From a virus (Duplodnaviria > Caudoviricetes): a stretch of 64,000 nt of DNA. The first letter of the stretch is position 1. Every line of letters starts with the position of its first letter. Position numbers and translations under genes: made by a program. Location: IMG/VR virus record IMGVR_UViG_3300019378_000009, positions 32,001-96,000 of that record; one strand, written 5' to 3'. The notes beneath the pieces were generated by a model. That model was not told where the DNA came from, did no database searches, and saw nothing but the letters and a program-made list of their open reading frames with translations. Below, in pieces: positions 48,924 through 58,921 of the stretch.

Positions 48924-49328
48924 ATGGATACATTAATACTTGCAAAAATCGACCGTTTTTATGCAAATAACGGACAAGAGGCGGAGCGAGTTTTCCGCTA
49001 CACTTACACGGGCAAGCTTACAAAAGCCGATAACATTAAGCACACCGACGGCGCCGACTGCGACGACATTCAAATCAAGAGCGCGAGAGCAAGCGTCTGC
49101 AAGGGCACAGATATCAATGCATATCTCTCAAATGACAAAGCAAGCCGTTTTGCTTATGTTGTCAAGGATATGAGCATAGCCTACATAATGACAAAGGCAC
49201 TATATATTGAGTTTGTAAATGCTTTCGCTACAATCACAACTGAGAGCGCAAAAAACGGTGGTGCTACAAAGTTAAGGCTTAAAAGCGAAAGCAAGGCGAT
49301 GCTTCAATGGTTAGCGGAGAGGGTGTAA
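48924..49328 (+). CDS. putative PD-(D/E)XK-like nuclease
   Basis: NNGQEAE...GAD...IQIK motif; own promoter and SD; similar to 50433-50915 with the halves in reversed order. Confidence 0.55.
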   Translation: MDTLILAKIDRFYANNGQEAERVFRYTYTGKLTKADNIKHTDGADCDDIQIKSARASVCKGTDINAYLSNDKASRFAYVVKDMSIAYIMTKALYIEFVNAFATITTESAKNGGATKLRLKSESKAMLQWLAERV

Positions 49329-49481
49329 ACCCTCTCCCTTTTGCATTGTTGAAATTTAACGAGCGCGTCCGGGCGCGACCCGGTAACTTGCACAAAAAGT
49401 TGGGGTGCACGCAGTATAAATTTGTGCAAAATTTTTGAGGAAGAGGATTGACTTTTTCAGTGATTTGTGGTATAATATAAG

Positions 49482-49572
49482 TGTCAAGGGGCGAGGGAAA
49501 CCCAAGTTGCAACAGGGTAGTGAACGGAACTTGAAAAAAATTTTTGAAAAATTTTTCAAAAACCCCTTGACA
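49482..49572 (+). ncRNA. ORF-less unit bounded by inverted repeats (candidate sRNA) A
   Basis: Starts just after TATAAT; TGTCAAGGGG...CCCCTTGACA; no SD/ATG ORF. Confidence 0.45.
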
Positions 49573-49599
49573 AATCCACGAAAGTGTGGTATAATATAA

Positions 49600-49857
49600 G
49601 TGTAAGAGGGAAGGACAACAAACTGTACTTGCACCACCGTCACCAAGAGTGTGAGAGCGGAGTGCAAGAGGGGAGAAGTCACCTTGCAAGGCTTCCCTTT
49701 CACAACCGAGGTAATGAGGTCACTCTCCGCAGACTCGCAAAGCCATAAGAGGTGGGAACGCAAGTTGTTCTGTAAGACGAGCCCTCGGTATAGAAATCAG
49801 TAGACCAAAGACAACACTCAACCCTTGAAAGAGTGTGTGGACGGAGCGAGGGTATAT
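49600..49857 (+). ncRNA. structured non-coding RNA / tRNA leader
   Basis: Promoter at 49567, no credible ORF, GC-rich stems (CTTGCAC/GTGCAAG, ACCGAGG/CCTCGGT, ACACTC/GAGTGT). Confidence 0.5.
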
Positions 49858-49962
49858 GAGAGGGTAGCTCAAGGGTAGAGCGGCATCCTGCTAAGATGCG
49901 GCAGACGAGGTCAGTGCACGGACTAGTCCACTGTATGGGTTCGAATCCCATCCCTTTCACCA
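49858..49962 (+). tRNA. atypical tRNA, anticodon GCT (Ser-reading), 35-nt variable region, encoded CCA
   Basis: Acceptor GAGAGGG/CCCTTTC-A-CCA; D arm GCTC-AAGGGTA-GAGC; anticodon arm GCATC-CTGCTAA-GATGC; T arm ATGGG-TTCGAAT-CCCAT. Confidence 0.85.
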
Positions 49963-50090
49963 TAAAGACTTGGCGCGGCCGGTGTCGCGCCGGGCCGCCC
50001 GGGCTGCCGAAAATTTTTTCAGCTTTTTCGCAAAAACACTTGACAAACAAATAGTTTTGTGGTATAATATATACAGAAATAAAGAATGAG

Positions 50091-50282
50091 GTGTCTATTA
50101 TGAAACACGTGGCTTACAATCTTGTCACTCACGAAGTACTTTTTTCCAATCATTCCAATGCTTTAAAGCGCAGAGTTACCCAAATAGAACGTTGGAATAT
50201 AGCTAATGGTTATGGCAAGGGCAAATGGATATTCGCCCACGGCAAGCAGTGTGAATATAAAATTGCTGCCAAGCTCCACTAA
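50091..50282 (+). CDS. hypothetical cassette protein
   Basis: Own promoter at 50040 and GAGG SD (start at 50091 or 50100). Confidence 0.65.
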   Translation: MSIMKHVAYNLVTHEVLFSNHSNALKRRVTQIERWNIANGYGKGKWIFAHGKQCEYKIAAKLH

Positions 50283-50432
50283 AAAGGAGCTAGCGCCCGG
50301 GCGGCCGACTGGGATTGTTAAATTTTTCACAAACAAGCAAGTGGGAAAATTTTAAAAAATTTTTAAAAAAGAGCTTGACAAATCAAAGCTTTTGTGATAT
50401 AATATACTTGTAAGAAAGAGAGGATACAACCA

Positions 50433-50915
50433 ATGTATAGACTTGATAGAATGAGAAAACAATACGAACAATTCACTGCCGCAGAGGGTTACATCATCGG
50501 CTTCCGTGATGGCGACAAGGTGTATGCGGTAGACCTTGATAAAATACCTCGCAGATACACCAGAATACAAAAGGAAAGCAAGAGCAACGGTGGTGGCTAT
50601 GGCTTGTATGTAAAAATCACCGAACCTGCTATCCTGTCCGAGCTACTGCCGAAAGCCTACTATGTATGCGAGCTTGCCGACCTCATAGACAATGACGGAC
50701 ACCTCAACGGCAAGGGCGAACTCAAACACTTTAACAAAGGTGTTATGTTTGAAAAGAAAATATGGGAACTCAACGGTATGGAGTTCAGGGGCAAGGACAG
50801 TGTAAGATTTTACGAAAGTGGTGATATTACCATTGACGGAAAAGAAATACAAATTAAGTTTGAATGGGCAAGAATTTGTTATGACCGCACACTAAAAAGA
50901 CTGACCGCCAAATAA
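50433..50915 (+). CDS. putative PD-(D/E)XK-like nuclease (circularly permuted relative to 48924)
   Basis: NKGVMFE...SGDITIDGKEIQIK near the C-terminus; own promoter and SD. Confidence 0.6.
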   Translation: MYRLDRMRKQYEQFTAAEGYIIGFRDGDKVYAVDLDKIPRRYTRIQKESKSNGGGYGLYVKITEPAILSELLPKAYYVCELADLIDNDGHLNGKGELKHFNKGVMFEKKIWELNGMEFRGKDSVRFYESGDITIDGKEIQIKFEWARICYDRTLKRLTAK

Positions 50916-51020
50916 GGCGGCCGGTCCCGGCCCGGGCGGCCGTTCATAATTTATTTACATTTGAGGGGTTGACTTTTCCCTCTCGGTGTGATATAATATA
51001 TAGAAAGTGAGGACACGAAT

Positions 51021-51164
51021 ATGTTGCAAAAGAATATAGAAAAACAAGAGCGAAAAAATCGCAAAACTTGGCAGGGATATTTCACTCGCAAGACACCAAC
51101 CAAGAAAGAAAAAGAAGAAAAAAATCGTAAAAAATACAAAAAAGGTATTGACAAAGACGATTGA
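51021..51164 (+). CDS. small highly basic protein (47 aa)
   Basis: Promoter at 50969, GAGG SD, MLQKNIEKQERKNRKTWQGYFTRKTPTKKEKEEKNRKKYKKGIDKDD. Confidence 0.6.
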   Translation: MLQKNIEKQERKNRKTWQGYFTRKTPTKKEKEEKNRKKYKKGIDKDD

Positions 51165-51211
51165 ATGTGTTATAATATATATGTAAGAAAAAGAAAGACG
51201 AGGTAATCAAA

Positions 51212-51466
51212 ATGGAAACCACTTACAGTGTAGAAGCAAAGTGCGATAAGACAAGCGGAATGAATGTCGAGTTCAAGGGCATTGACAATTTGGAAAGTGC
51301 GATGGCGTGTGTAACCACTCTTGAGTTGGCATTTCCAAATATCACCGTCATTTGTGAACAGACGGGCGAAATAATGTATCACCGTTTGATGTCGTTTGAG
51401 ATTTTCAATCCCAGTATGGAAATGGGTAAGGCAATCTTCAAGGCAGAGTGTGATATGTACTTTTAA
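51212..51466 (+). CDS. hypothetical cassette protein
   Basis: Promoter at 51148, GAGGT SD, downstream hairpin. Confidence 0.7.
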   Translation: METTYSVEAKCDKTSGMNVEFKGIDNLESAMACVTTLELAFPNITVICEQTGEIMYHRLMSFEIFNPSMEMGKAIFKAECDMYF

Positions 51467-51644
51467 AGGACAAGGCGCGAATCGGTAGTTATATCGGTTC
51501 GCGCCAAACACATTCTTCTCGGTTAGCATATGCTAACTCGTGCCCGGGCGCTTTGTGCACTTTGTACATATTTGGGGCGAAAACTTTTTTATTTTTGTGT
51601 AATTTGACGATTGACTTTTCACTCATTATATGATATAATATTAG

Positions 51645-51745
51645 TGTCAAGAGGGGAAGGGGTATAAACGGTCGCCACTTGCAAGCCTTCCATTGATAAA
51701 GGTGCCGAAAAATTTTTTGAAAAATTTTTCAAAAACCTCTTGACA
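51645..51745 (+). ncRNA. ORF-less unit bounded by inverted repeats (candidate sRNA) B
   Basis: TGTCAAGAGG...CCTCTTGACA following the promoter at 51611. Confidence 0.45.
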
Positions 51746-51773
51746 AACCATAAGTTTTGTGGTATAATATAAA

Positions 51774-51886
51774 TGTCAAGGGGCGGTGTTAAGCAACCGA
51801 GAAGGACACACATAAGCGCAATCGTGTTTGATGAAGTCGGGACTGCCGAAAAAATTTTTGAAAAACTTTTCAAAAACCCCTTGACA
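51774..51886 (+). ncRNA. ORF-less unit bounded by inverted repeats (candidate sRNA) C
   Basis: TGTCAAGGGG...CCCCTTGACA following the promoter at 51740. Confidence 0.45.
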
Positions 51887-51968
51887 AATCACCAAAAGTG
51901 TGATATAATATAAATGTAAATAAGGAGAGCCGACACTCCATTAACAAACGGAGAAAAGGAAGAAAAAT

Positions 51969-52298
51969 ATGGCAACTATCGCATTTATCAACGAAAACGG
52001 AAATGTATCGGCAAAGGTTCGTGAGCGTCTTAAGTCGCAGACTATGACCGCTATCACAAAGGCTATGGACAAGTGCAACCTTGAAACCATAGTCAATGCA
52101 GACAAGGGCTTGTCTATCCCTCTCGGCACTGACAAGACCAACGGTAACCCCATTTACGCACACATCTCGGTTGTGATTTCACAACACAACCCTGCGGAAA
52201 AGACCGCAAAGACCAAGACCAAGACCAAGAAAAAGGTCGCAGACGAGGTCGCTCTCCCCGACATTTTCGGGGCAGTAGACGAGGGTGAGGGAGAGTAA
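51969..52298 (+). CDS. hypothetical protein, paralog family B
   Basis: Paralog of 60154-60504 (F.NE.GNVSAK.R...VNAD.GLSI...LPDIF); Lys-rich tail. Confidence 0.75.
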   Translation: MATIAFINENGNVSAKVRERLKSQTMTAITKAMDKCNLETIVNADKGLSIPLGTDKTNGNPIYAHISVVISQHNPAEKTAKTKTKTKKKVADEVALPDIFGAVDEGEGE

Positions 52299-52443
52299 TC
52301 TCCCTCTCACAAACACCTGTCCGCCATTGGCGGACGGCGCCCGGGCGGCCGGAATTGTGAACAAATTGTTAACTTTTATAAAACTATTGACAAATCAAAA
52401 CAAATGCGATATAATATTAGTGTAAGAAAGAGAGGAAAACAAT

Positions 52444-52683
52444 ATGACAATTAAAGAGTTGCCACTTATTTATAATGTTGATAAGGTTGTAGTGTATAAT
52501 AAAAGAGGTCTTGTATCTTCCTTTTGGAGAAACTCACAATTTAGTCTTGCCGAGCAAGTCGAATATAACCGCACACAGTTAATCGGTGCAGAAAATGTTC
52601 TTAATGAAAAAATTGAGTCAATGAGTATTGGTGTATCGGGTATTGCCGACAATGTGATAACTTTAGAAATTTATTTAAAATAA
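52444..52683 (+). CDS. hypothetical cassette protein
   Basis: Promoter at 52387, GAGG SD. Confidence 0.7.
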   Translation: MTIKELPLIYNVDKVVVYNKRGLVSSFWRNSQFSLAEQVEYNRTQLIGAENVLNEKIESMSIGVSGIADNVITLEIYLK

Positions 52684-52755
52684 ATTTTCCAAAACCCCTT
52701 GACAAATCGGTTTGTTTGTGATATAATATAGGTGTAAGAAAGAGAGGTAACAACT

Positions 52756-53004
52756 ATGATTTCAAGAAAAGAAGCCGAAAGAACTACTGATGCATACTAC
52801 GAGGTTGAAAGAGTACTTGGAGAGGTTGACGATATGATGCTCACCAAAGAAGAAATCTATGCAAGATTTCCGTGTGATTGCGATGGAGTGCCATACATCA
52901 CCATCTCCGCTTTTGAAAATGCTCTCCGCAACCTAATGCATATGCGACACATAGACAGTGTATGCGTAAGGGGTGTTCGCCACTACGGAGCCGTCAGAAG
53001 ATGA
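52756..53004 (+). CDS. small winged-helix-like protein
   Basis: LTKEEIY...ITISAFENALRNL......G...Y; promoter at 52699. Confidence 0.6.
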   Translation: MISRKEAERTTDAYYEVERVLGEVDDMMLTKEEIYARFPCDCDGVPYITISAFENALRNLMHMRHIDSVCVRGVRHYGAVRR

Positions 53005-53141
53005 CGGCTTGGCGGCCCGGGCGCTTTGTGCACTTTGTACACTTTTCCCCGAAAAATTAGTGCATTTTTGTGCAACTTGCCATATTGACAAATGCGGAAA
53101 AATGTGATATAATTATAGTACCAAAGGAAAGAGAGGAACAT

Positions 53142-53594
53142 ATGATGCTTGGAAACACCATTCTTGCACTCAACGACATCAAGGAACTTGAAGTCAAAAT
53201 CTCCGACACCAAGAACGGAGAATGTATCCACCAAACCCAACGAAACGGCATAGGTGCGAAACTCCGTGAAGCACTTGCCAACGATTTCTTGCAGATTTTT
53301 CCCTACTCGGAAAATGCAGAGGACATCGTGGCTTATGTAACGGACGACGGGCTTGTGCTTGAAATTCCCAACCAAAGCGTCAAAGACGGCATTTCCAATG
53401 TGAACGGCAGTGGCGCAATCACTGTGGAACTCGGCTTTACGGTTAAGAACTTGGAATACAATGCACAAGACGAAAGCGAAAGCCACAAGGTCAAGGTTGC
53501 CGAAAAAGAAGCCAAAGCAAAGGAACTTGCCGAAAAGAAGGCAAAGAAAATTGCGAAAGACAATGCGGCTCGCAAGAAGGCAAAGGGAGAGTAA
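53142..53594 (+). CDS. hypothetical protein, paralog family A
   Basis: Paralog of 56707 and 61200 (DG..LE.PN.SV.D.I.N..GSGAI..E..FT.K.LEYNA.D); SD-supported ATG at 53142. Confidence 0.8.
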   Translation: MMLGNTILALNDIKELEVKISDTKNGECIHQTQRNGIGAKLREALANDFLQIFPYSENAEDIVAYVTDDGLVLEIPNQSVKDGISNVNGSGAITVELGFTVKNLEYNAQDESESHKVKVAEKEAKAKELAEKKAKKIAKDNAARKKAKGE

Positions 53595-53734
53595 TCTCCC
53601 TCGCCAAGCCGACCAAATGTAAAGTTTGGTTGGCGCGGCGCCCGGGCCGTTCATAATTTATTTACAATTTAGGTATTGACAAGTCAGTTATTTTATGATA
53701 TAATATATACATCAAGAGAAAGAAGGATAATAAT

Positions 53735-53983
53735 ATGAAATTTCAGCAAATCAGTAGAAGCAAAAGACACGCCAAATTTTATGACGCTTGCACAGGGGAA
53801 ATCTTTTTCGCAAAAGGTTTCACTTATATGAAAACCGATGATAATGATATGGTTAATGCCGTTCAATTAGACGGTATTGAGAGGGGAGAATTAACATTCT
53901 TTGAAGAAGGTGAAGATATTGACATTCTCAAAAGCGAAGTCGTTATCAACTACGAAGCAAACGAGGTGTTGTCGTGGATTTAA
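53735..53983 (+). CDS. hypothetical cassette protein
   Basis: Promoter at 53676, AAGGA SD. Confidence 0.7.
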   Translation: MKFQQISRSKRHAKFYDACTGEIFFAKGFTYMKTDDNDMVNAVQLDGIERGELTFFEEGEDIDILKSEVVINYEANEVLSWI

Positions 53984-54105
53984 CGGAATGCCAACTTTTG
54001 TTGGCACGCCCGGGCGGACGTTCACAAATTGTTTACAATTTGGATATTGACAAATCGTTTTATTTGTGATATAATATATACACAAGGAAAAAGGAGATAA
54101 ACAAA

Positions 54106-54408
54106 ATGAAAGTAAATCTTATGGTAAATTGGGAAGAAAAGGAAATTCTCACTGTCCAGGAACTTGACGAACGCATTGATGCGAGAGTTGACAAGGTGAT
54201 GCTGGACGCCGATGCTTATGACGAGCATCTTGATGACTATATTGACTGTAACTATACCAAGAGAGAACTCTTTGATGCTTTGTCTGGTAGCGATGCAGAG
54301 AGAGAAAGGGTACTTTCCGACATTCGTTCAGGAGTTGGCGAGAGCATTTACGATTGGGTGAATATGGATATCAGTGGCAATTTCCACGATGTAACCATAG
54401 AGGTCTAA
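54106..54408 (+). CDS. acidic hypothetical cassette protein
   Basis: Promoter at 54047, AAGGAG SD; D/E-rich. Confidence 0.7.
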   Translation: MKVNLMVNWEEKEILTVQELDERIDARVDKVMLDADAYDEHLDDYIDCNYTKRELFDALSGSDAERERVLSDIRSGVGESIYDWVNMDISGNFHDVTIEV

Positions 54409-54603
54409 CAAACAAGGCGCGAACTCAAAAAGTTGGGTTCGCGCTTTCTACATAAAATAGATTGTTAAATATTTAACAAGGGCGTGCCCGGGCGGTTCAT
54501 CGTTTTGCACAAAATGAAGTGTCAAACAAATAAAAACTTTGTGCAATATTACTACTTGACTTTCTCATTATTTTATGGTATAATTAGTATGTAAGAAAGA
54601 GAG

Positions 54604-54888
54604 GTGATTGTTATATTACTTGCAACAATGTGGAACTCAATCAAAGATATATTTCAACCGATATACTGTAAGACTTGTAAGTCAAAGCATTACGCGACAA
54701 TCGGTTTCATATGGCACTTATGGAGAAAACACGGTATCAAAATCACAAGGCGAGATTTTAAGTTTTTGGCAAAGTATAACTTAATAACAAGGTTAGTTGT
54801 CGGTGTGTTGTGTGCCGTGTTCTTTGTTCCATTGCTCGTGTTAAAGTTTATCTTGCTTCCGTTGTATTACTTATACAAAATTTTATAA
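54604..54888 (+). CDS. C2H2-like Zn finger plus transmembrane segment
   Basis: CKTC...HLWRKH followed by a hydrophobic C-terminus. Confidence 0.6.
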   Translation: MIVILLATMWNSIKDIFQPIYCKTCKSKHYATIGFIWHLWRKHGIKITRRDFKFLAKYNLITRLVVGVLCAVFFVPLLVLKFILLPLYYLYKIL

Positions 54889-54901
54889 AGGAGAATAAAA
54901 A

Positions 54902-55114
54902 ATGATTACAGTAGAAGTTACCGCAGAAGTCTTATATACTTGCGAACTCACCGCAGAGGACGAAGAAAAGGTAAAGGCATTTGCCGAAGAAAATGATGTT
55001 GAGTTGGCGGTTGCCGTTGGGGAACTCTATTCAGTAGGAGAAATCAATTTATACAAAAATTCCGTTGAAAGCGATTTCAGTACCGAAAGAATTGATGACG
55101 CATACGAAGAGTGA
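54902..55114 (+). CDS. very acidic small protein
   Basis: AAGGAG SD; E/D-rich. Confidence 0.7.
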   Translation: MITVEVTAEVLYTCELTAEDEEKVKAFAEENDVELAVAVGELYSVGEINLYKNSVESDFSTERIDDAYEE

Positions 55115-55266
55115 GTTAGCATATGCTAACTCGCCCGGGCGCATTGTGCATACTGCACAACATATAAGGCGCGGATTGTAAAAAGTTTGTGTATATTGCC
55201 ATATTGACTTTTGGTTTATTATATGATATAATAAGAATGTAAAAAGGAAGAAACGAGGTAAACAAA

Positions 55267-55764
55267 ATGAATTGGTTTGAATTTTCTTTGAGCGGTTTCC
55301 TTGCCGTATTTATCGTGCTTAATATTGTCAATGTAATTATCCAAACTGTCAAGTCTATTGCTACTATCAAGTGCAGTGCTTGGGCGGCAGCAGGTGTTAA
55401 TGCACTTGCCTATGGTTTATATACCATCGTGGTGGTATATATGAACGCAGACGGACTTGGTCTGTTTTGGAAAGCAATAATTATAGGTGTTGCCAACTTG
55501 CTCGGTGTGTATGTTGTCAAAGTTATTGAGCAGAAGAAAAGAAAAGATAAACTTTGGAAAGTTGAAGCAACCGTTGACCGCACCTCTATTACTCGCTTGG
55601 ATAATAACCTTGACGAAGCACACATACCCCATAACTATGTAGTTGCAGGCAAATACGGAATTTTTAATTGCTACTGTGCAACCCAAAAGGAAAGCCTTGT
55701 AGTAAAAGAAATTTTGGATATGTATGGTGCAAAATATTTTGCAAGTGAGAGTAAACCCCTCTAA
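55267..55764 (+). CDS. membrane protein (UPF0316/DUF5698-like)
   Basis: Three hydrophobic helices followed by a soluble C-terminal domain. Confidence 0.6.
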   Translation: MNWFEFSLSGFLAVFIVLNIVNVIIQTVKSIATIKCSAWAAAGVNALAYGLYTIVVVYMNADGLGLFWKAIIIGVANLLGVYVVKVIEQKKRKDKLWKVEATVDRTSITRLDNNLDEAHIPHNYVVAGKYGIFNCYCATQKESLVVKEILDMYGAKYFASESKPL

Positions 55765-55908
55765 ACGAGGGGCTAGCGCCCGGGCGGTTCGTCATTTTGC
55801 ACAATAAACAAATAAGAAATTAAAAAATGTTTGTGCAATATGCCATATTGACTTTTCCATTTGTTTGTGATATAATATATATGTAAGTGAAAGAAAGGAA
55901 CCACTCCA

Positions 55909-56550
55909 ATGATAGTAATTATGTTTGACACCGAAACCACCAACGAAATTGATTGCCCTTTTTGTTACGATTTTGGCTTCTCCGTCCTCGACACCGACAA
56001 GCAAAAAATTCTTGAAAAGCACTCCTATGTTGTAGCAGATATTTTTTGCGACAAATCGCTTATGGCTTCCGCCTATTTTGCAGATAAGATACCGCAATAT
56101 TGGGAAGATATTAAAAGCGGAAAAAGAATGCTCCGCAAATGGTCAACCATTAAAGCAATAGTCAGAGAGGTAATGGCACAATATAACATTGATACCGTAA
56201 TTGCCCATAATGCTCGCTTTGACTACTGTTCAACCGCCACTACGCAAAGATACCTCACCTACTCTAAATACAGATACTTTTTCCCTTATGGCACGAAATT
56301 TGTTTGCACTCTCAAAATGTCAAGAGAGGTATTTGGTAAAGACGAAAATTATATTGCTTTTTGCGAAGAAAATAATTACCTCACCACCTATAACAAACCT
56401 CGCTTTACTGCCGAAATAATTTACCGCTTTCTCACCAACAACACCGATTTTGTTGAAAGCCATACGGGGCTTGAAGATGTGGAAATTGAAACGGAAATTT
56501 ATCTTGAATGTATAAAGAGAATGCCCTCGGTTGACGGACTGCTTTGGTAA
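55909..56550 (+). CDS. DEDDh-family 3'-5' exonuclease
   Basis: FDTETT, AHNARFD, HTGLED. Confidence 0.85.
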   Translation: MIVIMFDTETTNEIDCPFCYDFGFSVLDTDKQKILEKHSYVVADIFCDKSLMASAYFADKIPQYWEDIKSGKRMLRKWSTIKAIVREVMAQYNIDTVIAHNARFDYCSTATTQRYLTYSKYRYFFPYGTKFVCTLKMSREVFGKDENYIAFCEENNYLTTYNKPRFTAEIIYRFLTNNTDFVESHTGLEDVEIETEIYLECIKRMPSVDGLLW

Positions 56551-56706
56551 GTGGTCCGCCAATGGCGGACAGCGCCCGGGCGTTTGTGCACCTTGCACAA
56601 AAACACCGCCCAAAACTTACAAAAATTTGTGCAATATGCCATATTGACTTTTACCCAATTATGTGGTATAATAAGTATGTAAGAAAGAGAAAGAGAGGTA
56701 ACAACT

Positions 56707-57180
56707 ATGCCCAACTTTATTAACACCAACACCGCCCTCAATGCCCTTAAAGGTACTACCGTTAAGGTAAGTCAGACCAAGAATGGCGAGGCTATCCACC
56801 AGACTATGCGAAATAAAATCGGTGCGGTACTGCGTGAGGCTCTTTTTGCAGACCTTAAAGAGATTTTCCCCACCTCTACCAACCCCGAAGATATCGTAGC
56901 ATACCTCACCGCAGACGGAATTATTCTCGAGATTCCTAACGAGAGTGTAAAAGACACTATCACCAATGTAAACGGTAGCGGTGCAATAAGCCTTGAAATC
57001 GGCTTTACTGTTAAAAATCTTGAATACAACGCACAGGACAGTGCAGAGGCATACGAGGTAGACAGAGCCGAAAAAGAGGCGAAAGCCAAAGCCAAAGAAG
57101 AGGCAAAGGCGAAGAAAATCGCCAAAGACGAGGCAGACCGCAAAGCCAAAGCCAAAGCAAAGGCGGAAAAGGGGGCATAG
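56707..57180 (+). CDS. hypothetical protein, paralog family A
   Basis: Close paralog of 53142; K/A/E-rich tail. Confidence 0.8.
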   Translation: MPNFINTNTALNALKGTTVKVSQTKNGEAIHQTMRNKIGAVLREALFADLKEIFPTSTNPEDIVAYLTADGIILEIPNESVKDTITNVNGSGAISLEIGFTVKNLEYNAQDSAEAYEVDRAEKEAKAKAKEEAKAKKIAKDEADRKAKAKAKAEKGA

Positions 57181-57333
57181 TCCCTCTTTTCTTTTGCGGA
57201 AGATTGTTAAAAATTTAACAAGCCGGCCCGGGCCGCGTTCATAAAAAATTCATAAATAAATTTTGAAAAAACTATTGACAAATTGACTTGTTTATGATAT
57301 AATATATACACAAAGGAAAAGGGAGAAAAGAAA

Positions 57334-57651
57334 ATGATTGAAAAAGAATTTGACTTAACCACTCTCACAGATGAAGAACTTGCCGATTTTCATACGGCAT
57401 GGGTAAACGAAGCAAAACGAAGAGATAAACAACGCAGACGAAATGCCGCATTGCTCTTATACGAGGCGGTAGGTCAATTCATTGACACTATGGCGCACTA
57501 TGACTTTGTAAAGTTGGTATCAATGGAGTTTGTCAATGAAGAGGGCGAGGATTGTGAGTTTGATATCAATGTTTTCGGTGAAGAGGTACTTACCAACATT
57601 CGTGAAACTTTGCGGTTAGAGATAGGTCAGTATAGCGGAGAGGACGAGTAA
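57334..57651 (+). CDS. acidic hypothetical cassette protein
   Basis: Promoter at 57275, GGGAG SD. Confidence 0.7.
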   Translation: MIEKEFDLTTLTDEELADFHTAWVNEAKRRDKQRRRNAALLLYEAVGQFIDTMAHYDFVKLVSMEFVNEEGEDCEFDINVFGEEVLTNIRETLRLEIGQYSGEDE

Positions 57652-57818
57652 TCGTCCTTTTCGGCATTTAATTTGTGGCAAAAGTTCTGCCCGGGCATTC
57701 GTCATTTTGCACAAAAATCAGTTCGCGCGGTGTGAAAAGTTTGTGCATTTTGACTATTGACTTTTTACTGATTATGTGGTATAATATGTATGTAAGTAAG
57801 AGAGAGGAGAACATCAAA

Positions 57819-57974
57819 ATGACTTGCCATTATACCGTCAAAGACCTTATTGAATATCTTGAAACCTTACCCAAAGATACCGAACTTAAAATTGAGAGAG
57901 CAAGCGGCAATCTCACGGACGGCTTCGACCTTGAATACGAGGACGGCAACCTTATCCTCTGCAATGCTTATTAA
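57819..57974 (+). CDS. small hypothetical protein
   Basis: GAGGAG SD, ATG at 57819; TVKDLIEYLETLPKD motif common in small phage proteins. Confidence 0.65.
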   Translation: MTCHYTVKDLIEYLETLPKDTELKIERASGNLTDGFDLEYEDGNLILCNAY

Positions 57975-57990
57975 AGAAGGGAGAACGAAA

Positions 57991-58194
57991 ATGATGTATG
58001 TATATCTTGTTTATGAAGAGTGCCACGGTTTGGTAATGGTCTGTGGCTCTGAAATGGGAGCAATCAACAAGGTTAATAGCCTCGCCCCTAACTATGGCAT
58101 TGACCCCGAAACAACACCGCTTGACTATAACTCCCATCACCATTATGGTTGGGAAGGTGCGGTATATTTTGTGAAAGAGGTGGTATTTGACTAA
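57991..58194 (+). CDS. small hypothetical protein
   Basis: GGGAG SD, ATG at 57991 (MMYVYLVYEE...). Confidence 0.6.
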   Translation: MMYVYLVYEECHGLVMVCGSEMGAINKVNSLAPNYGIDPETTPLDYNSHHHYGWEGAVYFVKEVVFD

Positions 58195-58433
58195 TGATAG
58201 TAACAAAATATGAACATCTAATAGACGGCTCTGAATATGACGAAGAAGATGTCAGAGATGTCGCGGCGGAACATATCACGTGGGATAACTTGAACGAGGC
58301 GTTAGACGATTTTGATTTTCATTGGTTGTGGCAACATTTAACCCAAGAGGGACAAATGGAACTATATGACAAAGCAATTGAAACCTACCAAGAAGAATAT
58401 TTTTCCGCCATTGAAGTAGAAGAGGACGAGTAA
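58194..58433 (+). CDS. very acidic small protein
   Basis: TAATG coupling to the previous gene; D/E-rich. Confidence 0.65.
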   Translation: MIVTKYEHLIDGSEYDEEDVRDVAAEHITWDNLNEALDDFDFHWLWQHLTQEGQMELYDKAIETYQEEYFSAIEVEEDE

Positions 58434-58921
58434 ATCGTCCTTTTTCTTTTATCAAAATACAAAAGATAATCCATGGCAGAAATCGTGCCCGGGCTAACAT
58501 GCGCCCGGGCCGCAAATTTGAACAAATCAAGTCTATTTTATTAACAAATTGTAAACTTTTCAATCAGAAGCAACACCTCCCTTCCACAGCTGTACACCGG
58601 ATATCCCATTACCGTTACATGCCTCCCGAGTAATAAACCACCGGTAATAAGCAGCTATAAGCAGCAGCAGCACCACCTGTCCTTTGCCCATAAGCAGCAG
58701 CACAAATTTGACATAATTATTCAAATCCACGAAAAAGCAGCTACAAGAAGCTGCAAAAATTTGAATTTTTATACGATTTATGATATAATATTTATAGAAA
58801 AAGAGGAAAAACAAGAAAAAATTACAAGCATTTCTGGAATATTTACGCATCGCCGCAGTAGGTGATAAAATAATGAATATGTAGATCTGGATATAATTAT
58901 TACGAAAGGGGAAGCAAGAGA

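Follow-up and report, generated by a model that had tools for sequence, protein, structure and literature searches.

A tRNA-shaped gene of 105 nt, with an encoded CCA and the anticodon GCU, lies on the plus strand at positions 49858 to 49962 of the 64,000-nt stretch of phage DNA analysed here (the window, bases 32001 to 96000 of the virus record). The gene is genuine and built like its sibling tRNAs. Its anticodon is that of a serine tRNA and its acceptor stem carries the main mark of an alanine tRNA, and most likely it is not a bulk decoder. We tentatively favor the reading that it encodes a non-decoding tRNA mimic, which RNase P would release and which would serve either as a decoy or as a handle for the 3' end of the preceding leader RNA. 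Because the evidence comes from one lineage and from sequence alone, this reading is put forward as a lead and not as a result. The record is 109,428 bp long, with direct terminal repeats and 36.9% GC, and near-identical DNA occurs in many metagenome runs from animal faeces and gut.

Architecture of the gene and its variable region

The acceptor stem is formed by GAGAGGG (G1 A2 G3 A4 G5 G6 G7; 49858-49864) and CCCTTTC (49952-49958), followed by A73 (49959) and CCA (49960-49962); as tabulated from the sequence, pairs 1:72 to 7:66 are GC, AT, GT, AT, GC, GC, and GC. The third of these, G3:U70 (G49860 with T49956), is the sole G:U in stems that are otherwise intact. U8 (T49865) and A9 join the acceptor stem to a D arm of the class I type (49867-49881), supported by the Rfam alignment, in which a 4-bp stem (GCTC, 49867-49870, with GAGC, 49878-49881) closes the 7-nt loop AAGGGTA, containing A14, A15, G18, G19, and A21. 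The anticodon arm (49883-49899), likewise placed by the Rfam alignment, has a 5-bp stem (GCATC, 49883-49887, with GATGC, 49895-49899) and the 7-nt loop CTGCTAA, with GCT at 49890-49892 next to U33 and A37. In the T arm (49935-49951), ATGGG (49935-49939) pairs with CCCAT (49947-49951) around the loop TTCGAAT, which fits UUCRANY. The tertiary set is complete (T49865 as U8, A49871 as A14, the D-loop G18 G19, A49877 as A21, and T49889 as U33), and the R15:Y48 pair is supplied by A15 and T49934 (U48). The first-pass annotation of this DNA had described four arms, a CCA, the anticodon GCT, A73, a 35-nt variable region, and a 4-bp class I-like D stem; all are present where it had placed them.

The Rfam tRNA model (RF00005, gathering score 29 bits) matches the gene over its full length (model positions 1-71) with 56.1 bits (E = 2e-9 for the window) and accommodates about 32 nt of the variable loop as inserted sequence. 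ARAGORN, which the annotation had named as a check, called no tRNA in the window; it called the gene, with the anticodon GCU and identical ends, once at least 8 nt had been cut in silico from the variable region, so the miss reflects a length limit. A selenocysteine tRNA would be marked by a match to RF01852, an 8/5 branch, and a UCA anticodon, none of which is found in this gene; the RF01852 model (gathering score 47) gave only 16.7 bits, and that on the opposite strand. The branch consists of a 7-bp acceptor stem and a 5-bp T stem; T8 is unable to pair with T65, and neither the 8/4 nor the 9/3 arrangement of allo-tRNAs is present.

The 35-nt variable region (49900-49934) comprises G44 and G45, 10 unpaired nt, a hairpin, and U48, as given by a constrained fold. 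The hairpin pairs CAGTG (49912-49916) with CACTG (49929-49933), followed inward by a C.C mismatch and two further pairs, and is flanked by 12 unpaired nt on its 5' side and by U48 alone on its 3' side. With the four arms held in place, no other fold of the insert scores better, and its CAGTG/CACTG stem is the pairing that had been noticed earlier. The cloverleaf with this hairpin has a predicted energy of -33.5 kcal/mol versus -34.2 for the unconstrained minimum, a gap of 0.7 kcal/mol; folded alone, the insert is no more stable than shuffled sequence (z = +0.64), and covariation lends it no backing because there is no homologue beyond this phage lineage.

Several interpretations of the insert were rejected. 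Its motifs GGACTAGTCC and CAGTGCAC are found at no other position in the genome, which rules out a repeat or binding-site family; pairing between insert and leader is ruled out because it is weaker than that obtained with shuffled inserts; and inspection by eye revealed no 5-bp stem with a 7-nt loop that could form a pseudo-anticodon arm within the variable region. The proposal that the insert is removable finds no support, as DNA contigs of other runs include no insert-free form. To our knowledge, no splicing system exists in bacteria for a 30-nt insert at this position of the variable region.

Within the DNA searched, the 35-nt variable region is unique. IMG/VR yielded no match to any of five DNA patterns, four of them (exact or degenerate) describing the tRNA or the leader and the fifth a leader hairpin; blastn against 50,697 phage records returned generic T-arm matches only; and pattern scans of IMG/VR, JGI metagenomes, and 185,579 species genomes found no homologue. 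The gene is a singleton, specific to one lineage. The scan of the 185,579 species genomes, with a specified D arm, recovered 22 GCU tRNAs with class I bodies, all with short variable loops and several resembling Asn tRNAs with an altered anticodon; the metagenome scan recovered a single class I GCU tRNA (L030), which is unrelated and whose acceptor stem is poor. These tRNAs (L034-L055 and L030) are scattered over unrelated bacteria, some with Asn-type acceptor stems and G73 and others with badly paired acceptor stems. Such class I-sized GCU tRNAs may be anticodon mutants or integration-site fragments.

Transcription unit and variation among samples

The gene lies within an array of small cassettes, each with a consensus promoter (TTGACA-17-TATAAT) and a terminator. 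Its own sigma-70-type promoter (49567-49595, plus strand) has this form with a TG extension and matches the consensus at 12 of 12 positions, with a predicted transcription start near 49601-49603; promoters of like type head the neighboring cassettes (48864, 49448, 50040, and 50375). Between the start and G1 of the tRNA, which it directly abuts, is an ORF-less leader of about 255-260 nt on the plus strand (49601-49857) with a GC content of about 0.5 versus 0.37 for the genome; it has no family match in Rfam. Upstream, a second promoter (11/12) in 49448-49566 precedes an ORF-less unit of about 90 nt, which ends in an AT-rich palindrome that continues into the -35 box of the tRNA unit's promoter.

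Downstream, GC-rich hairpins (GGCGCG..CGCGCC), the palindrome GCCCGGGC (49997-50004), and then AAAATTTTTT occupy 49972-50019, the probable end of the transcription unit; a scan flagged this hairpin on the minus strand only, and its plus-strand role and T run are read from the letters. All 16 copies of GCCCGGGC in the genome fall between genome positions 81997 and 90503 (window 49997-58510), an 8.5-kb tract of small cassettes; the first copy directly follows the tRNA, and the next consensus promoter begins at 50040. The small proteins flanking the tRNA have no match in Pfam or PHROGs. Three relatives of a 361-aa neighboring protein (41-45% identity) were found, with no tRNA near any of them, and no relatives were found of a 134-aa neighbor. 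A circular permutation linking the ORFs at 48924 and 50433 was considered and set aside, as BLASTP gave it no support. The Rfam ROOL model had no match in the genome, and its control search was likewise without a match, so this negative carries no information.

Contigs from two further runs, belonging to other studies, cover the tRNA with one or two substitutions in 105 nt, so the DNA is not an assembly artefact. A 2,375-nt contig from one of them (X15) spans 49704-50100; within the tRNA it carries two changes: C49931T replaces a G-C pair of the insert hairpin by G-U, and G49937A puts an A.C mismatch into the T stem. In the same contig the leader differs at three positions over 154 nt, and the 138 nt downstream of the tRNA differ by about 14 changes plus indels. 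In the other run (X17), a contig over 49821-49961 carries C49931T alone, and the leader hairpin 49814-49819/49831-49836 keeps its pairing through the paired changes T49818A and A49832T. Another X17 contig fuses 49853 to 49972 through 13 different letters, so an allele without the tRNA appears to exist; the indication is a weak one, coming from a single contig whose shorter side measures 30 nt. The leader's 3' half (about 49705-49853) recurs across many variant contigs, and in X17 its depth (49720-49842; about 49705-49850) is far above that over the tRNA. This pattern of variants in X15 and X17 suggests that the leader is a structured RNA in its own right and that the tRNA is an optional module behind it.

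These data also bear on the possibility that the gene is a young pseudo-tRNA, a class I copy that acquired an anticodon change and a 30-nt insertion within a promoter cassette and is now neutral or decaying. Its isolation in the pattern scans of IMG/VR, JGI metagenomes, and species genomes, the chance-level folding of the insert, the apparent absence of the gene from one variant, the T-stem mismatch in another, and the sporadic occurrence of class I-bodied GCU tRNAs in bacterial genomes, several with poor acceptor stems, are all consistent with such an origin. We nevertheless consider it unlikely: the stems are unbroken and include just one G:U, the conserved tertiary nucleotides are all kept, the promoter is perfect, the CCA is encoded, and the tRNA has accumulated one or two changes per 105 nt against some 14 plus indels in the adjacent 138 nt of the same contig.

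Identity elements and the phage tRNA set

Rfam finds 26 tRNA matches in the phage genome: 24 in an island at genome positions 1-12 kb, one Leu tRNA at 100.5 kb, and the gene at 49858-49962. An 88-nt tRNA-Tyr is an additional gene, called by ARAGORN and without an Rfam match. A CCA is encoded in all 24 of the phage tRNAs called by ARAGORN. The island contains a canonical class II tRNA-Ser(GCU) (genome 4808-4898; 91 nt, with a regular 6-bp extra arm), together with tRNA-Ser(UGA) and tRNA-Tyr; a close paralogue of the odd GCU gene was sought among the remaining phage tRNAs, and there is none. All three tRNA-Leu genes of the phage (genome 1024-1100, 5759-5835, and 100567-100643, the last corresponding to 68567-68643 in window numbering, beyond the window) are 77 nt long and have A73, a short variable loop, and a D arm with a 3-bp stem and an 11-nt loop. 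Bacteria seldom have tRNA-Leu of this type I form, for which Streptomyces coelicolor is a described case (PMC6614811). Long variable regions are also found on tRNAs with class I-family anticodons, Thr(UGU) and Cys(GCA), each of 86 nt (genome 5671-5756 and 6258-6343).

A relative of the phage (G001; 123.6 kb, about 42% protein identity) has 42 tRNA matches, none longer than about 90 nt, and shows parallel features, with short-armed Leu tRNAs and long-armed Cys and His tRNAs. Its tRNA-Leu genes (L032: 5451-5527, 5659-5735, and 6024-6101) are 77-78 nt long, type I, with a 3-bp stem and 11-nt loop in the D arm and with A73, and two genes with long variable regions encode His(GUG) of 88 nt and Cys(GCA) of 84 nt (L032: 487-574 and 6501-6584). 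ARAGORN called 40 tRNAs in G001, including the long-armed Cys and His tRNAs and a tRNA-Tyr; no tRNA-Ser was found. The odd gene and its neighbors point to a phage lineage that freely remodels tRNA variable regions (short-armed Leu; long-armed Thr, Cys, and His), and standard tRNA finders overlook or mislabel tRNAs remodeled in this way.

G1:C72 and G2:C71 are conserved in most bacterial tRNA-Ser, and SerRS reads the size of a proper extra arm, rather than its sequence, along with tertiary structure (PMC9976931). Both Ser tRNAs of the phage have G1:C72, G2:C71, G73, and regular class II arms. The odd gene has G1:C72, A2:U71, G3:U70, A4:U69, and A73; of the SerRS features it thus shares G1:C72, with A:U in place of G2:C71 and A at 49959 in place of G73. 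A regular class II extra arm and a class II core are likewise absent, with 12 unpaired nt, a mismatched hairpin, and a 4-bp class I D stem in their place. The earlier conclusion that this is not a normal tRNA-Ser is borne out by A2:U71, A73, the class I D arm, and the irregular hairpin when set against the canonical Ser tRNAs of the same phage.

The other half of that interpretation, a Ser/Leu chimera in which A73 and the long arm were taken as Leu features, does not hold for this phage. E. coli LeuRS depends on A73, A15:U48, G18 G19, and A20a and needs neither the anticodon nor a long arm (PMC9976931). Of these the odd gene has A73, A15:U48, and G18 G19 and lacks A20a, as well as the D arm with a 3-bp stem and 11-nt loop that marks the phage's three Leu tRNAs. 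It also has neither the 77-nt length nor the short variable loop of those tRNAs, and the chimera picture fails locally because they are without a long arm. In sum, the view that the gene is not a normal tRNA-Ser stands, the Leu-like part of the interpretation does not fit this genome, and the removable-insert part is unsupported.

To judge from its nucleotides, the combination of G3:U70 and A73, which the first-pass annotation had passed over, is the stronger identity signal. G3:U70 is the major, transplantable determinant of AlaRS, with G2:C71, G4:C69, and G20 as minor elements, and tRNAs into which it has been moved, including a class II tRNA-Tyr, accept alanine (PMC9976931). Besides G3:U70, the odd gene has A73 and G1:C72; at the sites of the minor elements it has A:U at both 2:71 and 4:69, and its position 20 cannot be read as a clear G. 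A comparison with 64 other tRNAs, drawn from the phage and G001, showed G3:U70 in each of the three Ala tRNAs and elsewhere only in a long-armed tRNA-Cys of G001. This tRNA-Cys has the first three acceptor pairs of the odd GCU gene (G1:C72, A2:U71, and G3:U70) but U73. By its identity nucleotides, therefore, the odd gene falls short of the Ser set, fits Leu in part, and carries the main Ala mark.

The phage itself reads AGY as serine. In 100 long phage ORFs, 40% of serines are encoded by AGT or AGC. When phage proteins were aligned with G001 by tblastn (12,562 aligned codons), AGY codons fell opposite Ser in 25% of cases and Ala in 6.4%, and TCN codons in 33% and 6.7%, respectively. Reassignment of AGY is excluded by the frequency of these codons and by their alignment in G001 with Ser and not with Ala. 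An efficient Ala-inserting decoder would thus harm the proteins of the phage, since its AGY codons mean Ser. Neither a synthetase core of the AlaRS or class IIa type nor a CCA-adding enzyme is encoded by the phage.

These results weigh on a mistranslating decoder, charged by host AlaRS through G3:U70 and A73 and delivered by EF-Tu to insert Ala at AGC and AGU, which we hold to be less likely again than a pseudo-tRNA. The gene is equipped for it: G3:U70 is accompanied by A73 and G1:C72 and is otherwise nearly confined to the Ala tRNAs in the set of 64 (3/3, plus one other), AlaRS recognition does not involve the anticodon, the loop around GCU has the canonical form, and transplants of G3:U70 have conferred alanine acceptance even on a class II tRNA-Tyr (PMC9976931). 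In E. coli, Ala was inserted by natural allo-tRNAs that have G3:U70 and a long V-arm (PMC7609411), and tRNAs whose V-arms had been enlarged were still active in translation (PMC7609411, PMC7590224). Such a decoder, however, would damage the phage's own proteins, in which 40% of serines use AGY codons that behave as Ser against the relative; it would compete with the phage-encoded canonical tRNA-Ser(GCU), and it has A2:U71 and A4:U69 in place of the minor AlaRS elements G2:C71 and G4:C69.

Improbable, and further down the scale than a mistranslator, is an unusual working tRNA-Ser(GCU), whose long region SerRS would tolerate and which would add AGY decoding capacity or serve as a nuclease-resistant spare. 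Its loop, CU-GCU-AA, is of the type found in the canonical copy, C11:G24 is present, and serine identity rests mainly on the size of the extra arm and not on its sequence (PMC9976931). Set against this are the lack of the G2:C71 and G73 kept by both phage Ser tRNAs, the class I D arm, the 12 unpaired nt ahead of a hairpin with an internal mismatch, and G3:U70, which would attract AlaRS; moreover, a single bulge in the V-arm stem, one nucleotide being enough to block SerRS, abolished serylation of an allo-tRNA (PMC7590224). Very improbable is charging by LeuRS (A73, A15:U48, and G18 G19) or ArgRS (C35, U36, and A73), giving Ser-to-Leu or Ser-to-Arg misreading: E. coli LeuRS is independent of anticodon and long arm, and C35 and U36 are among the ArgRS determinants (Table 1 of PMC9976931), but A20a and the major ArgRS element A20 are both absent, the D arm is unlike that of the phage's Leu tRNAs, and the misreading would harm the phage, which uses AGY as Ser.

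Possible roles and relation to known systems

We infer a non-decoding role for the gene because SerRS marks are absent, AlaRS marks are present, a canonical tRNA-Ser(GCU) is encoded elsewhere in the genome, and AGY means Ser. It is a genuine accessory phage gene with a class I core, a 7/5 branch, and an appendage of about 31 nt where class II arms emerge. Under the favored reading, a tRNA mimic, its consensus promoter would drive its transcription jointly with the structured leader of about 260 nt, RNase P would part leader from tRNA by cutting at G1, and 3' trimming would expose the encoded CCA. The product would offer an anticodon arm that copies tRNA-Ser(GCU), without the SerRS features of the phage's own Ser tRNAs and with the AlaRS marks G3:U70 and A73. 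It might then act as a decoy or sponge for a host factor that chooses tRNA-Ser(GCU) or long-armed tRNAs, candidate targets being an anticodon nuclease or a 3'-end-modifying toxin, or it might serve as a 3'-end processing handle for the upstream RNA.

Several observations support the mimic reading. The gene has a full-length model match and a cloverleaf nearly isoenergetic with the unconstrained minimum, and its unit has a consensus promoter (49567-49595), a GC-rich hairpin/T-run end, and an encoded CCA like those of its siblings. Further support comes from the presence of a canonical tRNA-Ser(GCU), the missing Ser identity marks, and the use of AGY as Ser; from the lack, in the phage genome, of an AlaRS-type or class IIa synthetase core and of a CCA-adding enzyme; and from the setting in a cassette array, the tRNA-less X17 variant, and the near-invariance of the tRNA elsewhere. 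V-arm hairpins can act as protein-binding tags (PMC7590224), and the toxin MenT3 picks tRNA-Ser by its long variable loop, so that a tRNA-Ala given that loop becomes a substrate (PMC11162799).

Other observations count against a mimic. The gene has no homologue outside its lineage, and its insert folds no better than shuffled sequence; the intact 7-nt anticodon loop with U33 and A37 suits a decoder and would be superfluous for a mere handle; the A.C mismatch in the T stem of X15 could mean relaxed constraint; and the tRNA-less joint is a single contig with a shorter side of 30 nt. In addition, we know of no host defence aimed at tRNA-Ser(GCU) that this phage faces.

Two narrower ideas may be distinguished from the mimic as such. 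The discriminator base of a tRNA covaries with its T-box, and A73 would be expected to mismatch a Ser T-box, so a T-box decoy is the less likely variant. It is somewhat doubtful that the gene is a selected phage weapon or shield, that is, an Ala-charged misreader of AGY or a decoy that soaks up a defence enzyme recognizing the long arm of tRNA-Ser; in the latter case, MenT/AbiEii-type nucleotidyltransferases or a GCU-specific anticodon nuclease would be bound by the oversized arm and free CCA. If the gene is a decoy, it would represent a third phage counter to tRNA-targeting defences, besides replacement tRNAs and anticodon-loop escape variants.

As far as its letters tell, the gene belongs with non-canonical, identity-conflicted tRNAs and with phage tRNA-like RNAs. 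A natural tRNA that pairs a Ser anticodon with an Ala acceptor stem would make it possible to ask directly how far identity conflict is tolerated or exploited by cells and phages. Nematode nev-tRNAs are natural mistranslating tRNAs, as is the tRNA-ProX family (PMC10404621); like them, the odd gene shows disagreement between anticodon and identity set in a natural gene, but they are conserved, experimentally backed families, whereas it is single, lineage-specific, and known from its DNA. Allo-tRNAs (Mukai et al. 2017, reviewed in PMC7609411) are likewise natural and bacterial, with long variable arms and a mismatch between anticodon and identity, some having G3:U70 and inserting Ala in E. coli. 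In contrast to their 8/4 or 9/3 branch and regular long V-arm stem, the odd gene has a 7/5 branch, a D arm of class I, and a hairpin that is irregular and loosely attached, and is a phage-borne singleton. Engineered aptamer-tagged tRNAs (Mukai 2020, PMC7590224) resemble it in combining Ala or another identity with a V-arm unacceptable to SerRS and a hairpin capable of binding protein; they were built in the laboratory from an allo-tRNA chassis and carry defined aptamers, unlike the predicted hairpin of this gene.

In eukaryotes, mascRNA is the tRNA-like 3'-end processing module of MALAT1 and is without a proper anticodon loop. The phage gene resembles that arrangement in placing a tRNA-shaped element directly behind a non-coding RNA, for which reason RNase P would set both ends, and differs from mascRNA in retaining a canonical anticodon loop. 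The canonical class II tRNA-Ser(GCU) shares with the odd gene its anticodon, loop type, extra region between positions 45 and 48, and encoded CCA, and differs in having G2:C71, G73, and a 6-bp arm in 91 nt, as against A2:U71, G3:U70, A73, a 4-bp D stem, and a 35-nt region.
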